From Escherichia coli (GTDB lineage Bacteria; Pseudomonadota; Gammaproteobacteria; Enterobacterales; Enterobacteriaceae), in NCBI RefSeq assembly GCF_041248615.1, contig NZ_CP158426.1: a stretch of DNA of 64,000 bases; one strand, 5' to 3'. A program made the position numbers and the translations under genes. Below are positions 3,201 to 58,054 of the stretch, piece by piece; position 1 is the first letter of the stretch; each line of letters starts with the position of its first letter. The notes under the pieces were generated by a model. The model searched no databases, was not told where the DNA came from, and saw nothing but the letters and a program-made list of their open reading frames with translations.

Positions 3201-4275
3201 GGTCGTTAGTTGGGTCGACACGTAAGGTTTCAGAGATATATGGGCCGTGATCCAGATCGTTGGTGAACAGCGTTTCGATACGCTTGTGACCAGACTGGCT
3301 CAGCTTAGCCAGCAGATCCAGGCTCAGCTCCATGTTCGCAGCACAGATCAGTTCGCCGGTAGACTCATCAATATAGTCTTTAGCAACCACTTTACCTGCG
3401 ATGTACTCAACCGGGACTTCGATCAGTTTGACGTCGTCTTTTTCCAGCTGGCGAATGTGGCGCGCAGTGATACGGCGGCCTTTTTCTACGTACACTTTAC
3501 CGTTAGCTTCGATGTCAAAAGATGCGGTTTCACCACGCAGGCGTTCCGGCACCAGTTCCATCTGCAGCTTGTTATCACGGATTTCAAAGATAACTTTTTC
3601 AAAGAACAGGTCGAGGATCTGCTCTGTGGTGTAGTTCAGGGCGCGCAGAATGATGGTCGCAGGCAGTTTACGGCGACGGTCGATACGTACGAACAGGTTG
3701 TCCTTCGGATCGAATTCGAAGTCCAGCCAGGAACCACGGTAAGGGATGATGCGCGCGTTATACAGCACTTTACCCGAAGAGTGGGTTTTACCTTTGTCGG
3801 AGTCAAAGAAGACGCCCGGACTACGGTGCAGCTGGGAAACGATAACACGCTCAGTACCGTTGATAACAAAGGTACCGTTGTCTGTCATGAGCGGAATTTC
3901 GCCCATGTAGACTTCTTGTTCTTTAATGTCTTTTACGGTGCCTTCCGGCGCTTCGCGCTCATAGATCACCAGACGCAGTTTAACGCGCAGCGGTGCGGAA
4001 TAGGTCACGCCACGGATTTGACATTCCTGGACGTCAAACACCGGTTCGCCAAGGCGGTAGCTGACGTATTGCAGCTCGGAATTACCGCTGTAGCTCTGAA
4101 TCGGGAATACGGAACGGAAAGCAGCTTCCAGACCATACTGCCCTTCAGGATCTTGCTCGATAAATTTCTGAAACGAGTCAAGCTGGATAGAAAGGAGATA
4201 AGGTACATCCAGAACTTGTGGACGTTTACCAAAATCCTTACGAATACGTTTTTTCTCGGTATAGGAGTAAACCAT
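247..4275 (-). CDS. rpoB: RNA polymerase beta subunit (1342 aa)
   Basis: ORF 247..4308 minus; product begins [35 protein letters not shown] 11 codons inside the track ORF, so start set to 4275; full-length match to RpoB by eye. Confidence 0.97.
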
Positions 4276-51569: not shown

Positions 51570-52463
<894 letters not shown>

Positions 52464-52504
52464 TTACCTCATCAATCGCTTGTAGTTATATGTTGTGTTG
52501 TGAA

Positions 52505-52540
52505 CATCTATCCATTTAGACGTCCAGATGTAAAGATGAA
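52505..52540 (-). promoter_or_regulatory. MetJ operator (tandem met boxes) upstream of metF (approximate)
   Basis: Minus strand reads tandem 8-mers resembling AGACGTCT (CATCTGGA CGTCTAAA TGGATAGA) 45-80 bp upstream of the metF start. Confidence 0.55.
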
Positions 52541-52758
52541 GGAAAAGCCGAGGGGCGTCAACCGAAAAATGACCAATGATGGTGAGGAAAAATCAGGGAA
52601 GTTGAAAAAAACTCATCTTAATTAGAGGCGATAAAAGATTTCTCTATAGCGCAATCCACCTCGCACGTTTTGACTGATATTCTGACAACACAGCGACACC
52701 TGGGCTTATTCGAAAAACAACGTCCTGCCACCGGATGGTGATGCTAAGGCATCTGATT

Positions 52759-52782
52759 CGGCCTGCGCCCTCGCGTAGGCCG
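52759..52782. repeat. REP-like palindrome / terminator downstream of the nucleotidase gene
   Basis: Perfect palindrome cggcct-gcgccctcgcgt-aggccg flanked by GTAGGCCGAATA, resembling REP (GTAGGCCTGATAAG...) elements; sits near the left edge of the metF-metL insertion. Confidence 0.5.
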
Positions 52783-52841
52783 AATACTGGATCTGCAAAA
52801 TCAACTGGTAACAAACAGATGAATCAACTCAATACGTACTT

Positions 52842-54395
52842 TTACTTGATATCTTTCACGCGCATACCGTTGATCTGTTCATCCGTGATGGTGTTACCCG
52901 CTTTGAAGTAATCAACCACGGCGTGATAAACGTAATAACCGCCCGTTGTGTTACGCGCTTTCCCTTCGGTAAAGGCGGTAAAACCATCTCCACCATCAGC
53001 AAGGAAACTCTGAGTAGCAATGTGGTAAATCGTCGCATCTTCAATGGGTTTGCCATTCAGAGTCAGCGTGATTACCCGCTGACCAACCGGCTTACTGCTG
53101 TCGTACTTCATTTCCAGGCCTTTCGATACCTGTAAAACGCCATTACTTAAACTTGCGCCGTGTTCCATCAAACTGCGTAATTGTTTACCCGTGAGATCCA
53201 TCGTCACCAGTTCGTTGGGAAACGGGAAGGTACTGATGACGCCGCCCATCGTAATCGCCCCTGCGGGGATCTCATTGCGAATGCCGCCAGAGTTGGTTAA
53301 CGCCAATTGGGTGTTTTTACCCGCCGCTACCAGTAAAGCATCAGCCGCCAGGTTCCCGAGGGAAGCCGATTCACCATAGGCACGTTTTAATTCAACCGGC
53401 GATTTCGCGACCGTTTGTTGCACCACTTCATCAAGCTTTTTATTCCAGCCGTCGATCACCTGTTTTGTTTGCGGATCGGGCTTCCACTCGTCGGCGTAAA
53501 TGGTTTTAAGCTCGAAGTTTTTCACCGTAAAATCATGCGGCTTCTCTTTGTAGTCGAGAACCAGTTTGCCCACATCAATCCCGCCGCTGTCAGTGGAGAG
53601 GATGAGCGTATTGCCGACTTTAATCGGTTCCGGCGTACCCACATGCGCATGTCCGGTGATCAAAATATCCAGCCCTTTCACCTGACTTGCCGTCTGAATA
53701 TCTTTATCCAGCGCGCGACGCACATCTGTGCCTCCCATACTGGACTGGCGGGCCGGAACACCTTCATGGATCAGGGCGACGGTCAAATCAACCTTGCCTT
53801 TAAGTTCATCGATATAACGTTGTAGCCATTTAATTTCATCACGCGCTTCAATCCCCACTCGCGTTGCCGCAGATACCGTGTCATTAAAGGCAAATACACC
53901 GTGCAAACCTATAACGCCTATTTTCACTCCGTCTTTTTCGATGATGGTATATGGCTTATCCCAGAATGATTTACTGCTGTTCTGATAAAAAACATTGCCC
54001 TGCACAATAGGGAATTTTGCCTGACTCAACTGTAATAATGTGTTGTCCCAGCCGTGGTCAAATTCATGGTTGCCTATCGTGACGGCATCAAACGGCATAG
54101 TATTCATAATATCGATAATAGCCTTACCTTTGGTCAGGCTGCTGATATATGGCCCGGTAAAATAATCACCCGCATCAAAAAACCATGTCGCTTTATTTTT
54201 TGCTTTTTCTTGCTTAACCAGCGTAGTGATATTTGCCCAGCCGCCAATATCCCGTTTACCATCAGCGATCCACGGCACTTTATAAGGCTCGACATGCGCA
54301 TGGAGGTCGTTGGTATAAATGATGGTGACATCTTTGGCGCAAGCCCAAAACGGCAGTGTTAATGCGATACCCGCAGCAAGTATTTTAATTTTCAT
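52842..54395 (-). CDS. secreted bifunctional metallophosphoesterase / 5'-nucleotidase-family protein (UshA/CpdB-like), accessory relative to K-12
   Basis: 517-aa product with signal peptide [20 protein letters not shown], calcineurin-like phosphoesterase motifs DLHAH, GDYFTG, GNHEFD, GHAH, and 5'-nucleotidase C-terminal-domain signature ([12 protein letters not shown]...[16 protein letters not shown]); good SD AAGGGA 8 nt upstream of ATG. Confidence 0.85.
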
Positions 54396-54454
54396 AAACA
54401 GTCCCTTTCAGTGAGATAAAGGATTGCTACATTACGTTCTGAAAGAGTTATTTA

Positions 54455-54470
54455 TGTGAGAGTAATCACA
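54455..54470. promoter_or_regulatory. consensus CRP-binding site in divergent promoter region
   Basis: Perfect TGTGA-N6-TCACA (TGTGAgagtaaTCACA), centred about 67 bp upstream of the nucleotidase ATG and about 65 bp upstream of the zinc-ribbon gene ATG. Confidence 0.6.
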
Positions 54471-54527
54471 TCCACAGGGGAGCGTTGCCGGACAAAATCA
54501 ACGACCATGTGAAATCGTTGGTGATAT

Positions 54528-55658
54528 ATGTCGACTCTGTTTACGATTAATGCCTGCAAGTCGTTTGGTTGCCGTAATTTAGGGCAGCCAACATCTAAAG
54601 ATTATAGCTGGCCCGACTATCGGCTGGGTTATCCGGCATTGCACTGTCGGGCATGTGGCAGTTACCCGCCGTTGTTTGACGAGCAACAATTTCGTGACTG
54701 GTTGTCAGTTCACTTATCTACTTTTGCAACAGAGAAAGGCCATTTTTGCCCGGTATGTTATGGCACAAAGACGATTTGTTATGGCCACAATCCACAGGGG
54801 TCGCAACGCATTCAATGTCGTAACTGCAAAAAAGTCTGGACACCTAAACAATATCAGAAAGAAATAACGCCTCCTGAAATAATCGAAACGGTTGCTCTTC
54901 TGGTGCCATTTCAGGGAGCCAGCAATGGGCAGAAACTGTATGTTTTAATCAGTTTTGATGCTCTTCGCGGTAATATTCTTCATCTTTCTACTAATTACAC
55001 GCAGCATCAGGCTGGAGAAAGTCTGCATTATCGATACAGAGGGAATGCAGAACCAGAGTTACACGAGAGTAATATTGTACAACGCGTTGATATGCGCGAA
55101 GCACAATTTCTACGCCGCAGTCAGTTTGATGAAATTCAGTATGGCAGCGCAGCGCTCAAACGCAATGCTAAAGGTGTTATTCTGCGTCCGGTTATCACTG
55201 CACACGGGCATTTCAGAGTACTGAATATTTTATTCCCTACAGTAAAAACACATGTAATTTCACACGAGTGTTTTTTAAGAGGTGCGATTATTACGGCCTG
55301 GGCAGAACTGTTTCGCCAACAGCAAGGTGAGATTTGGTTTATTGAAGAGGAAATAGCTGACTATACCGATAATACGCCCTGGCGTTTTCAGGGAAAAACT
55401 TATCACGGCTGGTGGAAAAATCAGTGGCAACTCTGGGTTCAGGGCAAAAATCGTAAAATGGTATGTGCATTAACGGGCGGAAATATCAGCAAAGCTGAAA
55501 TGCTCTCTTTAGCAACCAGCAGACATTTTATCGACTGGCTACATAAACAAGCAGTATTTACTCACAGCGCCCCGCTTTCCGCAGGGCGCGTTACGCAAAT
55601 ACTGCTTTCTCTGGCTCAGGATTACAACAACTGCGCCAGGCGGTTAATATCCGACTGA
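54528..55658 (+). CDS. hypothetical tandem zinc-ribbon protein; second ribbon resembles the IS1 InsA zinc finger
   Basis: 376-aa ORF; CxxxxC...CxxC (CKSFGCRNLG...CRACG) then CPVCYGTKTICYGHNPQGSQRIQCRNCKKVW, which aligns with IS1 InsA [32 protein letters not shown]; C-terminal about 270 aa Trp-rich with no motif I recognise; last 12 codons are antisense to the metL 3' end. Confidence 0.6.
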   Translation: MSTLFTINACKSFGCRNLGQPTSKDYSWPDYRLGYPALHCRACGSYPPLFDEQQFRDWLSVHLSTFATEKGHFCPVCYGTKTICYGHNPQGSQRIQCRNCKKVWTPKQYQKEITPPEIIETVALLVPFQGASNGQKLYVLISFDALRGNILHLSTNYTQHQAGESLHYRYRGNAEPELHESNIVQRVDMREAQFLRRSQFDEIQYGSAALKRNAKGVILRPVITAHGHFRVLNILFPTVKTHVISHECFLRGAIITAWAELFRQQQGEIWFIEEEIADYTDNTPWRFQGKTYHGWWKNQWQLWVQGKNRKMVCALTGGNISKAEMLSLATSRHFIDWLHKQAVFTHSAPLSAGRVTQILLSLAQDYNNCARRLISD

Positions 55659-58054
55659 ATCGCCCCTGCGGTGACGTCGCGCCCCGCGCCAGGCCCACGG
55701 ATCACCAGAGGGTTATCGCGATACCAGCGGCTTTCGATGGCAAAGACGTTATCGCACGGCAGCAGTGATGCCAGCGGATGGTCTTCACGCACCGCTTCCA
55801 CGCCCACACGCGCTTTGCCATTGGCATCGAAACGCGCCACGTAGCGCAGCACCAGCCCCATTTCGCGGGCCGCTTCCAGCCGTTGCACCATCTGCTCGTT
55901 AAGTTCATCGCCGTTTTCAAAGAAATGGTCGATGCTACCACCTTCGCAATGGGCAGGCACCAGCGATTCCACGCGCACCTGATCTGGTTCGATGTCGTAA
56001 CCCGCTTCACGCGCCAGAATCACCAGCTTGCGCATCACGTCTTTGCCGGAAAGGTCATCACGCGGATCAGGCTCGGTTAAGCCCTGCTGCCACGCCTGAT
56101 CCACCAGCTCGGTAAACGGCACGCTACCGTCGAATTGCAGGAACAGCCAGGAGAGCGTGCCGGAGAAGATCCCACTGATCGACAAAATAGTATCGCCGCT
56201 GTCGATCAGATCGCGCACGGTATGGTTGATCGGCAAGCCCGCACCGACGGTGGCGTTGTACAGCCAGTGACGCCCGGTTTTTTCGAAGGCGTCGTGGATC
56301 TGGCGATATTTATTGCTGTCGCTGGCTCCCGCCAGTTTGTTGGCGCTGATGACGTGGAAACCGTGGCTGGCAAAATCGAGATACTGATCAGCAAGCTGCT
56401 GGCTGGCGGTAACGTCCAACACCACTAAATCATCATACGGATGGGCGCGCATCCACAGGAACAGCGACTCTTCATCCTGCTCGACCGCTTCATCGTTGAA
56501 GAAGGCTAACGCGCGGCTGGCGTCCAGCCCGTCATAACTCAACAGGCTACGGCGGCTGTCCACCACGCCTGCCAGCACAAATTCAAAGCCGGTACGCGCC
56601 GAGAGCGTGCTCTGCTCACGGGCGAACAGTTCCAGCCAGCGGGAACCGATATTGCCCTTGCCGAACAATACCAGGCCGATGCGTTTTTCTGCGCGGAAGA
56701 CGGACTGATGCAGCCCCTGAATCAGGCTTTCGGTCGGTCCGGTGCGCAGTACTGCCACCAGGCTGATGCCGTCATCCGACTGCCAGGTAAATTCGACCGG
56801 CTGGCCTTTCAGTTGCTGCCAGAAGCGGTGGCAATGCAGCGGGTTACGGGTTACGCCCGCCCCAACCATCGCCACCAGCGCCAGCCCCTGACGCAGGCGC
56901 AGTTCGCCAGGTAATCCCGCTTCGTCGAGGATTTTCAGCGCACTGTCGGCCACTTCTGAGGTGTAGCAAAATTGCAGCAACTGGCGATCGTTATGTACGC
57001 CAACCGCCAGTGGGCGCACCTGAGCACGTTTCAGGATCTGGTCGATCTCTTTATGCGCCAGTTTGAAATCCTGGCTGGTGGGCACCTGAAACTCAATCAA
57101 GCAGACATCATCGTGGCTGGTGACAATACGCGCACCAGTACCGGAGGCCAGCACGCGTTCAATGCGCGTGGAACCTTGATCCGGCGTGTAGCTACAGCGC
57201 AGCTGCAGGTCAATTTCGCTGCCAGAAACCGGCTGTAAAGTACGGGCGTGAAGAACGGGAGCCGCCAGACGCGCCAGTTCGCTGGCCTCATCCAGACGCA
57301 GCAACGGCAGCAGGCAGGCATCTTTCACTTTACGCGGGTCGGCACTGTATACCCCGGCGACGTCGCTCCAGATGGTGACGCGAGAAACACCCGCCAGCGC
57401 ACCGATTTGTGTCGCGGAATAGTCGGAACCGTTACGCCCCAGCAGCACCGTTTCACCGGCGTTGTTACGGCTGATAAACCCGGTCACCACCAGACGTTTG
57501 CCCGGATGTTGCACCAGTAGCTGTTGCAGCAACGGGTAAGAAAGCCCTTCATCAACCTGCGGTTGCGCAGCGCGTTCAGCGCGTAAAAACTCGCGGGCAT
57601 CAAGCCAGGCCGCTGGCAGCCCTTGTTGATTAAGCACCGCAGACATCAGGCGCGCCGACCACACTTCACCGTGACCCACCACTTCCGCATACACCGCATC
57701 GTTAATACCGCTGTCGAGCAGCGCCGCCAGGCGCTCAAGATCGCTGACAAAAGCGCTAATGAGGCTATCGGCTTCTTCGGCGGGTAGCAGGCCGCTAATC
57801 AGATCGCACTGATAGCGACGCAGCGTTTGTTGAACCTGATGCGCAGAGAGACGATCGGTCTGACTTAGTTTCAACCAGTTAATCAACTGGTTAGTGGTGC
57901 TACCGGCGGCGGAAACCACCATCATATCGTCAGGCTGAGAGTACTCCGCCATAATGCCCGCGACACGCAAATAACACTTCACATCAGCCAGACTACTGCC
58001 ACCAAATTTATGCAGTTGACGACCTTTCGCCCCTGCCTGCGCAATCACACTCAT
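55622..58054 (-). CDS. metL: bifunctional aspartokinase II / homoserine dehydrogenase II
   Basis: 810-aa product MSVIAQAGAKGRQLHKFGGSSLADVKCYLRVAGIMAEYSQPDDMMVVSAAGSTTNQLINWLKLSQTDRLSAHQ... ending ...AIQSDINRLAQLL; immediately downstream of metB. Confidence 0.96.
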   Translation of the reverse strand: MSVIAQAGAKGRQLHKFGGSSLADVKCYLRVAGIMAEYSQPDDMMVVSAAGSTTNQLINWLKLSQTDRLSAHQVQQTLRRYQCDLISGLLPAEEADSLISAFVSDLERLAALLDSGINDAVYAEVVGHGEVWSARLMSAVLNQQGLPAAWLDAREFLRAERAAQPQVDEGLSYPLLQQLLVQHPGKRLVVTGFISRNNAGETVLLGRNGSDYSATQIGALAGVSRVTIWSDVAGVYSADPRKVKDACLLPLLRLDEASELARLAAPVLHARTLQPVSGSEIDLQLRCSYTPDQGSTRIERVLASGTGARIVTSHDDVCLIEFQVPTSQDFKLAHKEIDQILKRAQVRPLAVGVHNDRQLLQFCYTSEVADSALKILDEAGLPGELRLRQGLALVAMVGAGVTRNPLHCHRFWQQLKGQPVEFTWQSDDGISLVAVLRTGPTESLIQGLHQSVFRAEKRIGLVLFGKGNIGSRWLELFAREQSTLSARTGFEFVLAGVVDSRRSLLSYDGLDASRALAFFNDEAVEQDEESLFLWMRAHPYDDLVVLDVTASQQLADQYLDFASHGFHVISANKLAGASDSNKYRQIHDAFEKTGRHWLYNATVGAGLPINHTVRDLIDSGDTILSISGIFSGTLSWLFLQFDGSVPFTELVDQAWQQGLTEPDPRDDLSGKDVMRKLVILAREAGYDIEPDQVRVESLVPAHCEGGSIDHFFENGDELNEQMVQRLEAAREMGLVLRYVARFDANGKARVGVEAVREDHPLASLLPCDNVFAIESRWYRDNPLVIRGPGAGRDVTAGAIQSDINRLAQLL

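Follow-up and report, generated by a model that had tools for sequence, protein, structure and literature searches.

A predicted periplasmic 5'-nucleotidase from the accessory metL–metF island of Escherichia coli and its divergent, transposase-derived neighbor

The 517-residue protein encoded at 52842..54395 (minus strand; ATG start, stop codon included) of the window, a 64,000-nucleotide stretch of Escherichia coli DNA, is very probably a Sec-exported, soluble periplasmic 5'-nucleotidase of the two-domain dimetal type, serving nucleotide scavenging under catabolite control, activated by CRP and paired with a probable new regulator. The gene, here called NT1, carries the RefSeq annotation WP_000694075.1 ("bifunctional metallophosphatase/5'-nucleotidase"). 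The proposed regulator is the 376-residue product of the divergent neighboring gene (54528..55658, plus strand), which is unannotated and matches no Pfam family. As an enzyme the nucleotidase is of modest consequence, being a third, strain-variable periplasmic nucleotidase present in about a third of E. coli. Its context is more useful, since the pairing with this partner and the conserved CRP site between the two genes lead to a directly testable hypothesis of a new type of nucleoside-scavenging regulator.

Domain architecture, export signal and active site

Pfam analysis identified an N-terminal dimetal metallophosphoesterase domain (residues 24–252, 53640..54326, minus strand; PF00149, Metallophos, E 4e-12) followed by a C-terminal 5'-nucleotidase substrate-binding domain (residues 335–477, 52965..53393, minus strand; PF02872, 5_nucleotid_C, E 1e-38). 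The presence of both domains in this order places the protein in the 5'-nucleotidase/metallophosphoesterase superfamily, and no curated NCBIfam cut-off was reached. The first-pass annotation had read a full set of metal-binding motifs and a 5'-nucleotidase C-terminal signature from the letters, and both were borne out, with DLHAH located at residue 30, GDYFTG at 76, GNHEFD at 108 and GHAH at 248. Further motifs lie at residues 209 (IHEG), 370 (GGIR), 390 (FPFPN) and 468 (GGDGF). A Shine-Dalgarno-like AGGGA (54402..54406, minus strand) is found in the sequence 8–12 nt upstream of the ATG. Codon differences from the allele in the longer form of the island, described below, number 51 synonymous and 8 non-synonymous, which marks the gene as one under purifying selection rather than a chance open reading frame.

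Residues 1–20 (54336..54395, minus strand) form a predicted signal peptide, with signal peptidase I expected to cut after A20. Read by simple rules rather than by a trained predictor, the N-terminus contains two lysines, a hydrophobic core (residues 5–17) and an A-C-A motif ahead of K21, with no lipobox; these are the features of a type I signal peptide and of the Sec-exported soluble periplasmic class, in agreement with the earlier description of a secreted metallophosphoesterase with an AxA-type cleavage site. The only cysteine of the protein, C19, lies within this signal peptide and prompted us to consider a lipoprotein, which was ruled out by the lack of a lipobox match and by the alignment of orthologues, where the cysteine is replaced and A-x-A followed by (K/Q)D is retained. 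The construct crystallized for PDB entries 3IVD and 3IVE aligns from about residue 19–20 onward, which fits a mature protein starting near this point. The periplasmic location of the protein is thus predicted from sequence features only.

The active site was mapped onto UshA, using its residues D41/H43/D84/N116/H117/D120/H217/H252/Q254 as the reference for the metal site. This assigned D30, H32, D77, N109, H210, H249 and H251 as dimetal ligands and H110/D113 as the catalytic dyad; the seven ligands and the His–Asp dyad are invariant in seven family members. The seventh ligand, His251, is of the CD73 type, whereas UshA has glutamine at this position. In the C-terminal domain, R373, F392, N394, F464 and D470 align with UshA R410, F429, N431, F498 and D504, respectively. 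Equivalents of the UshA metal ligands, the His–Asp dyad, Arg410, the stacking phenylalanine pair, Asn431 and Asp504 are present in both island paralogues and in orthologues down to Vibrio. Around UshA Arg375 and Arg379 the alignment is inexact and the equivalents are uncertain, with a conserved arginine, R338, nearby.

By analogy with the family, the N-terminal domain would hold two metal ions through the seven ligands listed above, and a metal-bound water, assisted by the H110–D113 dyad, would attack the 5'-phosphate. In the C-terminal domain, the base would be stacked between F392 and F464, with phosphate and ribose held by R373, R338, N394 and D470. A rotation of the domains, like that of UshA and CD73, may swing the substrate onto the metal site, yielding nucleoside and phosphate, with nucleoside uptake as the next step.

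Closest relatives and likely substrates

Over residues 19–517 the protein shares ~98% identity with 3IVD/3IVE, structural-genomics entries for an E. coli "Nucleotidase"; with about ten substitutions between them, the two are essentially the same protein. We take the entries to represent gene c4898 of strain CFT073 with uridine and cytidine bound. Literature searches on 3IVD, 3IVE and c4898 returned unrelated papers only, with no paper or activity data tied to the entries, and yielded no enzymatic, localization or expression data for the 517-residue protein or its close relatives. Given that a crystal structure has already been deposited, we regard the enzyme itself as ordinary.

Among other proteins of solved structure, the best matches are the Thermus 5'-nucleotidase 2Z1A (E 2.5e-46) and the CD73 and venom 5'-nucleotidases (E about 1e-33), followed by UshA (E 2e-23). 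By sequence comparison, the closest relatives are 5'-nucleotidases of the Thermus, CD73 and YfkN C-half type rather than UshA. Thermus thermophilus 2Z1A, vertebrate CD73 and the 5'-nucleotidase half of Bacillus YfkN have the same two-domain architecture, histidine as seventh ligand, phenylalanine clamp and arginine residues, but are only about 25–30% identical to NT1. Two of them also differ from NT1 in organization: the wall-anchored YfkN has several domains fused together, and CD73 is a dimer held by a GPI anchor. The best NCBIfam match was to the 5'-nucleotidase half of the YfkN-type model, covering profile positions 629–1097 only, and assignment as a YfkN-type trifunctional nucleotidase (NF006934) was rejected at 183.6 bits against a cut-off of 1646 over the fused architecture. 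The same applied to UshA (NF007109, equivalog; 152 bits against 600, with 24% identity to the K-12 protein), to NadN (TIGR01530; 134 bits against 436, with a Pfam NadN C-domain match at E 0.14) and to SoxB (TIGR04486; 153 bits against 550); no Sox-family product is annotated by RefSeq in the surrounding 15-kb stretch. UshA, a UDP-sugar hydrolase/5'-nucleotidase, is likewise periplasmic and has the same fold and the same catalytic residues except for one ligand (Gln254, His251 here), but it is a 550-residue core-gene product, whereas the accessory NT1 is 33 residues shorter.

These relationships point to 5'-NMPs as the probable substrates. The conserved residues would bind the nucleoside 5'-phosphate moiety of any such compound and so cannot distinguish hydrolysis of 5'-NMPs from that of NDPs and NTPs, nucleotide sugars, NAD or dinucleotides. 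The enzyme might instead act mainly as a pyrophosphatase or phosphodiesterase on UDP-sugars, CDP-alcohols, NAD or linear and cyclic dinucleotides, with the 5'-NMP step second or absent and the three island paralogues dividing the substrates among them. We consider this rather unlikely, although the fold and the conserved residues are shared with UshA and NadN, both of which catalyze reactions of this sort, and NT1 matches their models at E 2.5e-44 and 6e-39, respectively. The occurrence of three paralogues at 57–68% identity in one island also suggests substrate specialization. Nevertheless, neither the UshA nor the NadN match comes close to its curated cut-off, the nearest proteins of solved structure are plain 5'-nucleotidases, and the CD73-type His251 replaces the glutamine of UshA. 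Nor does the protein match anti-phage signaling systems: PADLOC returned no defense-system hit for the nucleotidase or the neighboring protein, and an anti-phage signaling role is accordingly without support. The earlier suggestion of cyclic or signaling nucleotides as substrates likewise gains no support from the analysis. As the 5'-nucleotidase that we favor, NT1 could widen the range of extracellular nucleotides usable as carbon, nitrogen or phosphate source; alternatively, it could remove host-derived nucleotides.

The divergent intergenic region and the neighboring gene

The two genes are separated by a 132-bp divergent intergenic region containing a cAMP-CRP consensus core, TGTGA-N6-TCACA (54455..54470), centered 67 bp from the start codon of the nucleotidase gene and 65 bp from that of its neighbor. 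It is the sole perfect match in the 64 kb, where 0.08 would be expected. Enterobacter, Cronobacter, Vibrio and three distant loci retain the core in the corresponding region, with no more than one mismatch; overall, the predicted site is conserved in all seven divergent regions examined (p 0.004–0.02 each). By sequence, then, the region has the consensus site at a suitable upstream distance that a cAMP-CRP promoter calls for. A scan for sigma-70 consensus elements revealed no credible promoter for either gene or near the CRP site; lack of a consensus sigma-70 promoter is common among CRP-dependent promoters. CRP most likely activates nucleotidase expression from this shared region.

Two inverted repeats accompany the site. 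CAACGA-N10-TCGTTG (54499..54520), directly upstream of the neighbor's ATG, is a candidate operator; it is identical in the long-island allele and has one arm altered in Enterobacter. The other pairs 54403–54411 with 54439–54447 in the 5' leader of the nucleotidase gene and overlaps the Shine-Dalgarno sequence. A riboswitch or attenuator was considered here, but the leader folds no better than shuffled sequences (z −1.05), and we therefore claim neither.

The neighboring protein combines two Cys4 zinc ribbons, the second of which is InsA-like, with a domain of RNase H-like transposase fold. The zinc-ribbon type is common to IS1 InsA, and the RNase H-like core to DDE transposases such as ISCth4 of the IS256 family and to retroviral integrases. 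Matches of the family profile to C2H2 zinc fingers among PDB sequences reflected the cysteine pattern only and were set aside as compositional. Although the fold is that of a DDE catalytic core, no conserved Asp-Asp-Glu triad is seen at the canonical positions, as judged from an alignment and the secondary structure of a model rather than from superposition: acidic residues account for at most 18% of any family column along the first core strand (118–127) and at most 12% after the fourth strand (217–222), leaving E247 as the only column that is 100% acidic. Also unlike DDE transposases, the gene is present as a single copy, with no terminal inverted repeats.

Only 119 representatives of this small family were found among 1.84 billion proteins. 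At all ten informative loci its genes adjoin those for a nucleotidase, a nucleoside phosphorylase, a phosphopentomutase-like protein or a NupC/NupG-type transporter; locus L015, on a contig of only 2.7 kb, was outside the informative set. CytR and CRP jointly control nucleoside catabolism genes, and a CRP site likewise accompanies nucleoside-use genes at this locus, but the neighboring protein has no sequence relation to CytR/LacI proteins. It would probably be a new kind of regulator of the nucleotidase. Our broader proposal, which we regard as evenly poised between right and wrong, is that the family is confined to gammaproteobacteria and comprises domesticated transposases, built of InsA-type zinc ribbons and a catalytically degenerate RNase H-like core, that act with cAMP-CRP as dedicated regulators of nucleotide and nucleoside scavenging genes; the formerly catalytic domain might sense nucleosides, and NT1 would be the founding E. 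coli target. A literature search on a domesticated-transposase nucleoside regulator found nothing relevant. At the NT1 locus, cAMP-CRP would activate from the shared intergenic region, and the catalytically degenerate zinc-ribbon partner would probably add a further layer of control. This transposase-derived gene, which has the appearance of regulating nucleoside scavenging, is in our opinion the fresher lead.

Alternatively, the pair could be a mobile element in which the neighbor is an active transposase and the nucleotidase its passenger, linked merely by co-mobilization. The lack of a conserved acidic residue at either DDE aspartate position makes this very improbable, as does the occurrence of the island at one fixed site between metL and metF, with a median of one place per genome, in 1840 E. 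coli genomes. Terminal inverted repeats were sought at the ends of the inserted segment and none were found. In addition, the nucleoside genes found beside distant relatives vary (NupC, NupG-like, PNP and DeoB-like), so that what they share is a functional theme and not a cargo, the CRP site in the intergenic region is conserved, and a family of this size is unlike a spreading insertion sequence.

The metL–metF island and the core nucleotidases

Both genes lie in an accessory segment of 3,010 bp (52611..55620) for which E. coli K-12 has 197 bp instead; its limits were set by blastn of the K-12 metL–metF region and of a long island against the window. This is the short, 3.0-kb form of the island, carrying the nucleotidase and the divergent 376-residue gene without the two paralogous nucleotidases and tsx. 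Relative to the long form, 4.6 kb are absent and the neighboring gene has lost its last 12 codons at the junction; its final 37 nt here overlap, on the opposite strand, the 3' end of metL. In the long form, NT1 is accompanied by two additional nucleotidases and by a Tsx channel, which scores 492.8 bits where the cut-off is 311. NT1 would accordingly belong to an accessory nucleotide-scavenging island, the full form of which combines three nucleotidases with a second Tsx nucleoside channel. About a third of the complete E. coli genomes searched (1840 of 5426) carry the island in either form, 659 of them the long form and roughly 1180 the short form.

The long form has been catalogued before. 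A 2026 PLoS One paper (PMC12928451) describes in silico a region "GR 31 metL..metF" of APEC/ExPEC strains, with three UshA-like ORFs and a Tsx channel, and proposes nucleoside degradation and transport from annotation. ORF 431 of GR 31 (1554 bp) corresponds to NT1 at the same chromosomal site; GR 31 is the 7.8-kb long form, which the ExPEC strains named there carry, whereas the window holds the short one. The passages of PMC12928451 consulted here mention neither the divergent gene nor a CRP site.

Since ushA and cpdB are core genes (5418 and 5403 of 5426 genomes), NT1 is an additional enzyme. The idea of a third periplasmic nucleotidase thus holds in this respect; its novelty is lowered by the crystal structure of a ~98% identical protein and by the gene's being a catalogued accessory gene between metL and metF. 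The protein is shorter than both UshA and CpdB (517 against 550 and 647 residues) and, as first described, clearly distinct from them at 24% and 23% identity, far from the level above 90% that would mark a known orthologue. CpdB, a 2',3'-cyclic phosphodiesterase/3'-nucleotidase, is periplasmic with the same N-terminal metallophosphatase domain but has an unlike C-terminal domain and 130 more residues. That NT1 is itself a CpdB-like 2',3'-cyclic phosphodiesterase/3'-nucleotidase is highly improbable: some orthologues bear the JGI label [quoted passage not shown] and the N-terminal domain of NT1 gives hits to CpdB models (E about 1e-29), but these span residues 19–256 only and score far below the cut-offs (101.6 bits against 486 for NF006938, 100.3 against 883 for TIGR01390), the overall identity is interrupted by many gaps, and the C-terminal domain keeps the 5'-nucleotidase-type phenylalanine clamp and arginine. 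It is equally hard to credit that the short-form gene is a decaying, functionless remnant left by the loss of two paralogues and tsx, as the 4.6-kb deficit and the clipped neighbor might suggest, because both ORFs are intact with all conserved residues of both proteins kept, differences from the long-form allele are mostly synonymous, the CRP core is perfect, and the form persists in so many genomes.

An Rfam search of 52300–55800 detected no RNA family, the sole match having an E-value of 0.78. Downstream of the nucleotidase gene, about 57 nt 3' of its stop codon and ahead of the metF promoter region, lies a G+C-rich inverted repeat (52756..52785, minus strand) with 13-nt arms and a 4-nt loop; this hairpin, which has no T-run, is possibly a terminator or a REP-like element.

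A predicted periplasmic nucleotidase additional to UshA and CpdB

The nucleotidase ORF (52842..54395, minus strand) opens with ATG and comprises 517 codons. The four motifs listed in the first-pass annotation (DLHAH at residue 30, GDYFTG at 76, GNHEFD at 108 and GHAH at 248) were all found, together with IHEG at 209, GGIR at 370, FPFPN at 390 and GGDGF at 468. Pfam placed a Metallophos domain at residues 24–252 and, as had been claimed, a 5'-nucleotidase C-terminal domain at residues 335–477 (5_nucleotid_C, E 1e-38). The proposed signal peptide was also recognized, by rules rather than by a trained predictor: two lysines, a hydrophobic core and A-C-A ahead of K21, with no match to a lipobox pattern at the N-terminus. 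The sole cysteine of the protein falls within this predicted signal peptide; orthologues have lost it and retain A-x-A followed by (K/Q)D. Orthologues with 56–91% identity were found in Enterobacter, Kluyvera, Klebsiella, Cronobacter, Atlantibacter, Citrobacter, E. albertii and Vibrio.

The description of an enzyme shorter than, and distinct from, its paralogues was accurate, the 517-aa protein being 24% identical to K-12 UshA (550 aa) and 23% identical to CpdB (647 aa). Almost every complete genome carries ushA (5418 of 5426) and cpdB (5403 of 5426); both belong to the core, and the nucleotidase is therefore an addition to both, as proposed. No NCBIfam model reached its curated cut-off; at 183.6 bits against 1646, the 5'-nucleotidase half of YfkN-type enzymes came out best. 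Membership was rejected for UshA (152 against 600), SoxB (153 against 550), NadN (134 against 436) and CpdB (101.6 against 486). Among solved structures, PDB 3IVD/3IVE, deposited as 'Nucleotidase', are ~98% identical over residues 19–517; we take these to be structural-genomics entries for c4898 of CFT073 in complex with uridine and cytidine, and our literature search found no paper citing them for the nucleotidase. Next came 2Z1A, a 5'-nucleotidase from Thermus (E 2.5e-46), and the CD73 or snake-venom enzymes of this type (~1e-33), with UshA behind them (E 2e-23).

We aligned the nucleotidase with UshA, two paralogues from the longer island form described below, and orthologues from Enterobacter, Cronobacter and Vibrio. 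The UshA metal ligands D41/H43/D84/N116/H217/H252 correspond to D30/H32/D77/N109/H210/H249, invariant in the alignment, and the catalytic dyad H117/D120 to H110/D113. The seventh ligand differs, with His251 in place of UshA Gln254, presumably resembling CD73-type enzymes. In the C-terminal domain, UshA R410, F429, N431, F498 and D504 match R373, F392, N394, F464 and D470; around UshA R375/R379 the alignment is inexact, and a conserved arginine, R338, lies there. Residues of this set bind a nucleoside 5'-phosphate moiety and favour a 5'-nucleotidase-type reaction, and the gene product is most likely a soluble periplasmic dimetal 5'-nucleotidase that would free nucleosides and phosphate from extracellular nucleotides. 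The conserved residues leave the leaving group unconstrained: substrates could be mono-, di- or trinucleotides, nucleotide sugars or dinucleotides. A role as pyrophosphatase or dinucleotide hydrolase, in the manner of UshA or NadN, is compatible with the 5'-nucleotidase reading, if rather unlikely; a CpdB-like role is highly improbable.

The metL–metF island

The window derives from E. coli, and its positions 52500–55700 match the NRZ14408 isolate chromosome at 100% identity; there the order is metF, the nucleotidase (annotated 'bifunctional metallophosphatase/5'-nucleotidase', WP_000694075.1) and a 'hypothetical protein' abutting metL. A 3,010-bp segment (52611–55620), beginning immediately past the metL stop codon, stands in place of 197 bp of the K-12 metL–metF spacer. 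On a second E. coli contig, L004, the same site is occupied by a longer island, made up of the nucleotidase, its divergent hypothetical neighbour, two paralogous nucleotidases of 516 and 539 aa (57% and 68% identity to the window enzyme, respectively) and a nucleoside channel of the Tsx family (492.8 bits; cut-off 311). Relative to this long form, the window lacks 4,635 bp (L004 6141–10775), which hold the two paralogues and the second tsx. The short-form junction (55616–55658) lies exactly at the metL stop and cuts off the last 12 codons of the divergent gene, whose final codons are therefore read from metL antisense, into which it extends 37 nt.

Scoring presence as at least 80% of the short segment, we found either form in 1840 of the 5426 complete genomes and long-form-specific DNA in 659, leaving by subtraction ~1180 with the short form only; about two thirds have neither. 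The segment is found once per genome, always at this site, and is not flanked by terminal inverted repeats, which argues against an active mobile element; a transposon-cargo explanation of the gene pairing is very unlikely. That the nucleotidase is a functionless remnant is scarcely credible: compared with the long-form allele (96% DNA identity) it shows 51 synonymous and 8 non-synonymous differences, which contradicts such a reading. The divergent gene has only 73–80% identity over its 3' two-thirds (54842–55616 against L004 5367–6140), where 98 codon differences are synonymous and 81 non-synonymous; this pattern suggests an old allelic replacement or rapid evolution of the transposase-fold domain. 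A G+C-rich hairpin with 13-nt arms and no T-run (52756–52785), which separates the nucleotidase stop from the metF promoter region, is a possible terminator or REP-like element insulating metF.

In APEC strain BEN2908 the site is catalogued as 'GR 31 metL..metF', with three UshA-like ORFs (~27–28% identity to YfkN) and a Tsx homologue, for which the authors suggest, wholly in silico, coordinated nucleoside processing and transport (PMC12928451, 2026). Already annotated, structurally solved and mentioned in print, the nucleotidase will therefore not surprise a specialist: it is an uncharacterised member of a well-known enzyme kind, and its first interpretation stands, the enzyme alone being of less interest than proposed.

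The divergent gene and its family

The divergent gene (54528–55658, plus strand; 376 aa, annotated 'hypothetical') belongs to a family with no Pfam or NCBIfam model. A Pfam search with the protein gave no significant match, and only a weak IS1/InsA-type zinc-ribbon match was seen. An exhaustive search of 1.84 billion representatives returned 119 relatives. Across 49 aligned full-length members there are two Cys4 clusters (C10, C15, C40, C43 and C74, C77, C97, C100), R197 and H228 are invariant, and H246, W296, W300 and N367 nearly so. InsA-type zinc ribbons are combined with a predicted RNase H-like transposase fold without the canonical Asp residues.

The strongest evidence on this gene is its genomic context. 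Relatives lie at L003 6734–7870 (Enterobacter), L005 6586–7851 (Cronobacter), L007 6583–7863, L010 4291–5694, L011 6001–7437, L013 3274–4650, L014 6001–7707 and L016 6001–7491. In both E. coli island forms, and in Enterobacter, Cronobacter and Vibrio, a 5'-nucleotidase gene lies divergent to it; the Vibrio member actually encodes 426 aa with both zinc ribbons. Relatives of 25–30% identity are divergent from a DeoB-like/nucleoside phosphorylase/NupG-like operon (L010), a NupC-type transporter and phosphorylase (L011/L012) and another 5'-nucleotidase (L013); in L014 and L016, others lie immediately downstream of a nucleotidase gene and a phosphorylase gene, respectively. A nucleotidase, nucleoside phosphorylase or nucleoside transporter gene adjoins the family in all ten informative loci, an eleventh contig being too short to judge. 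A 508-aa arylsulfotransferase gene (PF05935) also adjoins the pair, on different sides in Enterobacter (L003 5043–6569) and Cronobacter (L005 9615–11141).

The protein is probably a new kind of regulator. Since a literature search on domesticated-transposase nucleoside regulators gave nothing relevant and no family model exists, the family and its CRP-linked association with nucleoside genes appear undescribed. We give about an even chance to a transposase-derived regulator class, a hypothesis that the family and its conserved CRP-linked context make testable.

CRP site and intergenic elements

The 132-bp divergent intergenic region holds a predicted cAMP-CRP core, TGTGAGAGTAATCACA (54455–54470), the sole perfect TGTGA-N6-TCACA in the 64-kb window (0.08 expected), its centre lying 67 bp from the start codon of the nucleotidase and 65 bp from that of its neighbour. 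The matching regions of Enterobacter (at the same spacing), Cronobacter, Vibrio and all three divergently arranged distant loci each contain a site that departs from the core at no more than one position. Seven independent loci with a family member keep the core at this stringency; region by region, only 0.4–2% of shuffles held such a site. CRP, with CytR, controls the classical E. coli genes of nucleoside catabolism and uptake, and catabolite control therefore fits the proposed scavenging role, in which the nucleotidase would act under cAMP-high conditions within an accessory scavenging island.

Judged from the sequence, TAATGT, ~30 bp downstream of the CRP site centre, could be the -10 element of a class II promoter; a consensus promoter scan found no standard promoter. 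The inverted repeat CAACGA-N10-TCGTTG (54499–54520), 8 nt upstream of the divergent gene's ATG, is a candidate operator; the long-island allele has the same repeat unchanged, and Enterobacter has a nearly identical one. In the nucleotidase leader, a 9-bp inverted repeat (54403–54411 and 54439–54447) overlaps the Shine-Dalgarno sequence and is kept in Enterobacter; its predicted RNA fold does not outperform those of shuffled sequences (z -1.05). The otherwise different L010 and L013 loci share a 15-nt string, TATCATTTTGTGTTG, upstream of the relatives' start codons (~4133–4147 and ~3237–3251, respectively), which could be a common promoter/operator element or a sign of related hosts.
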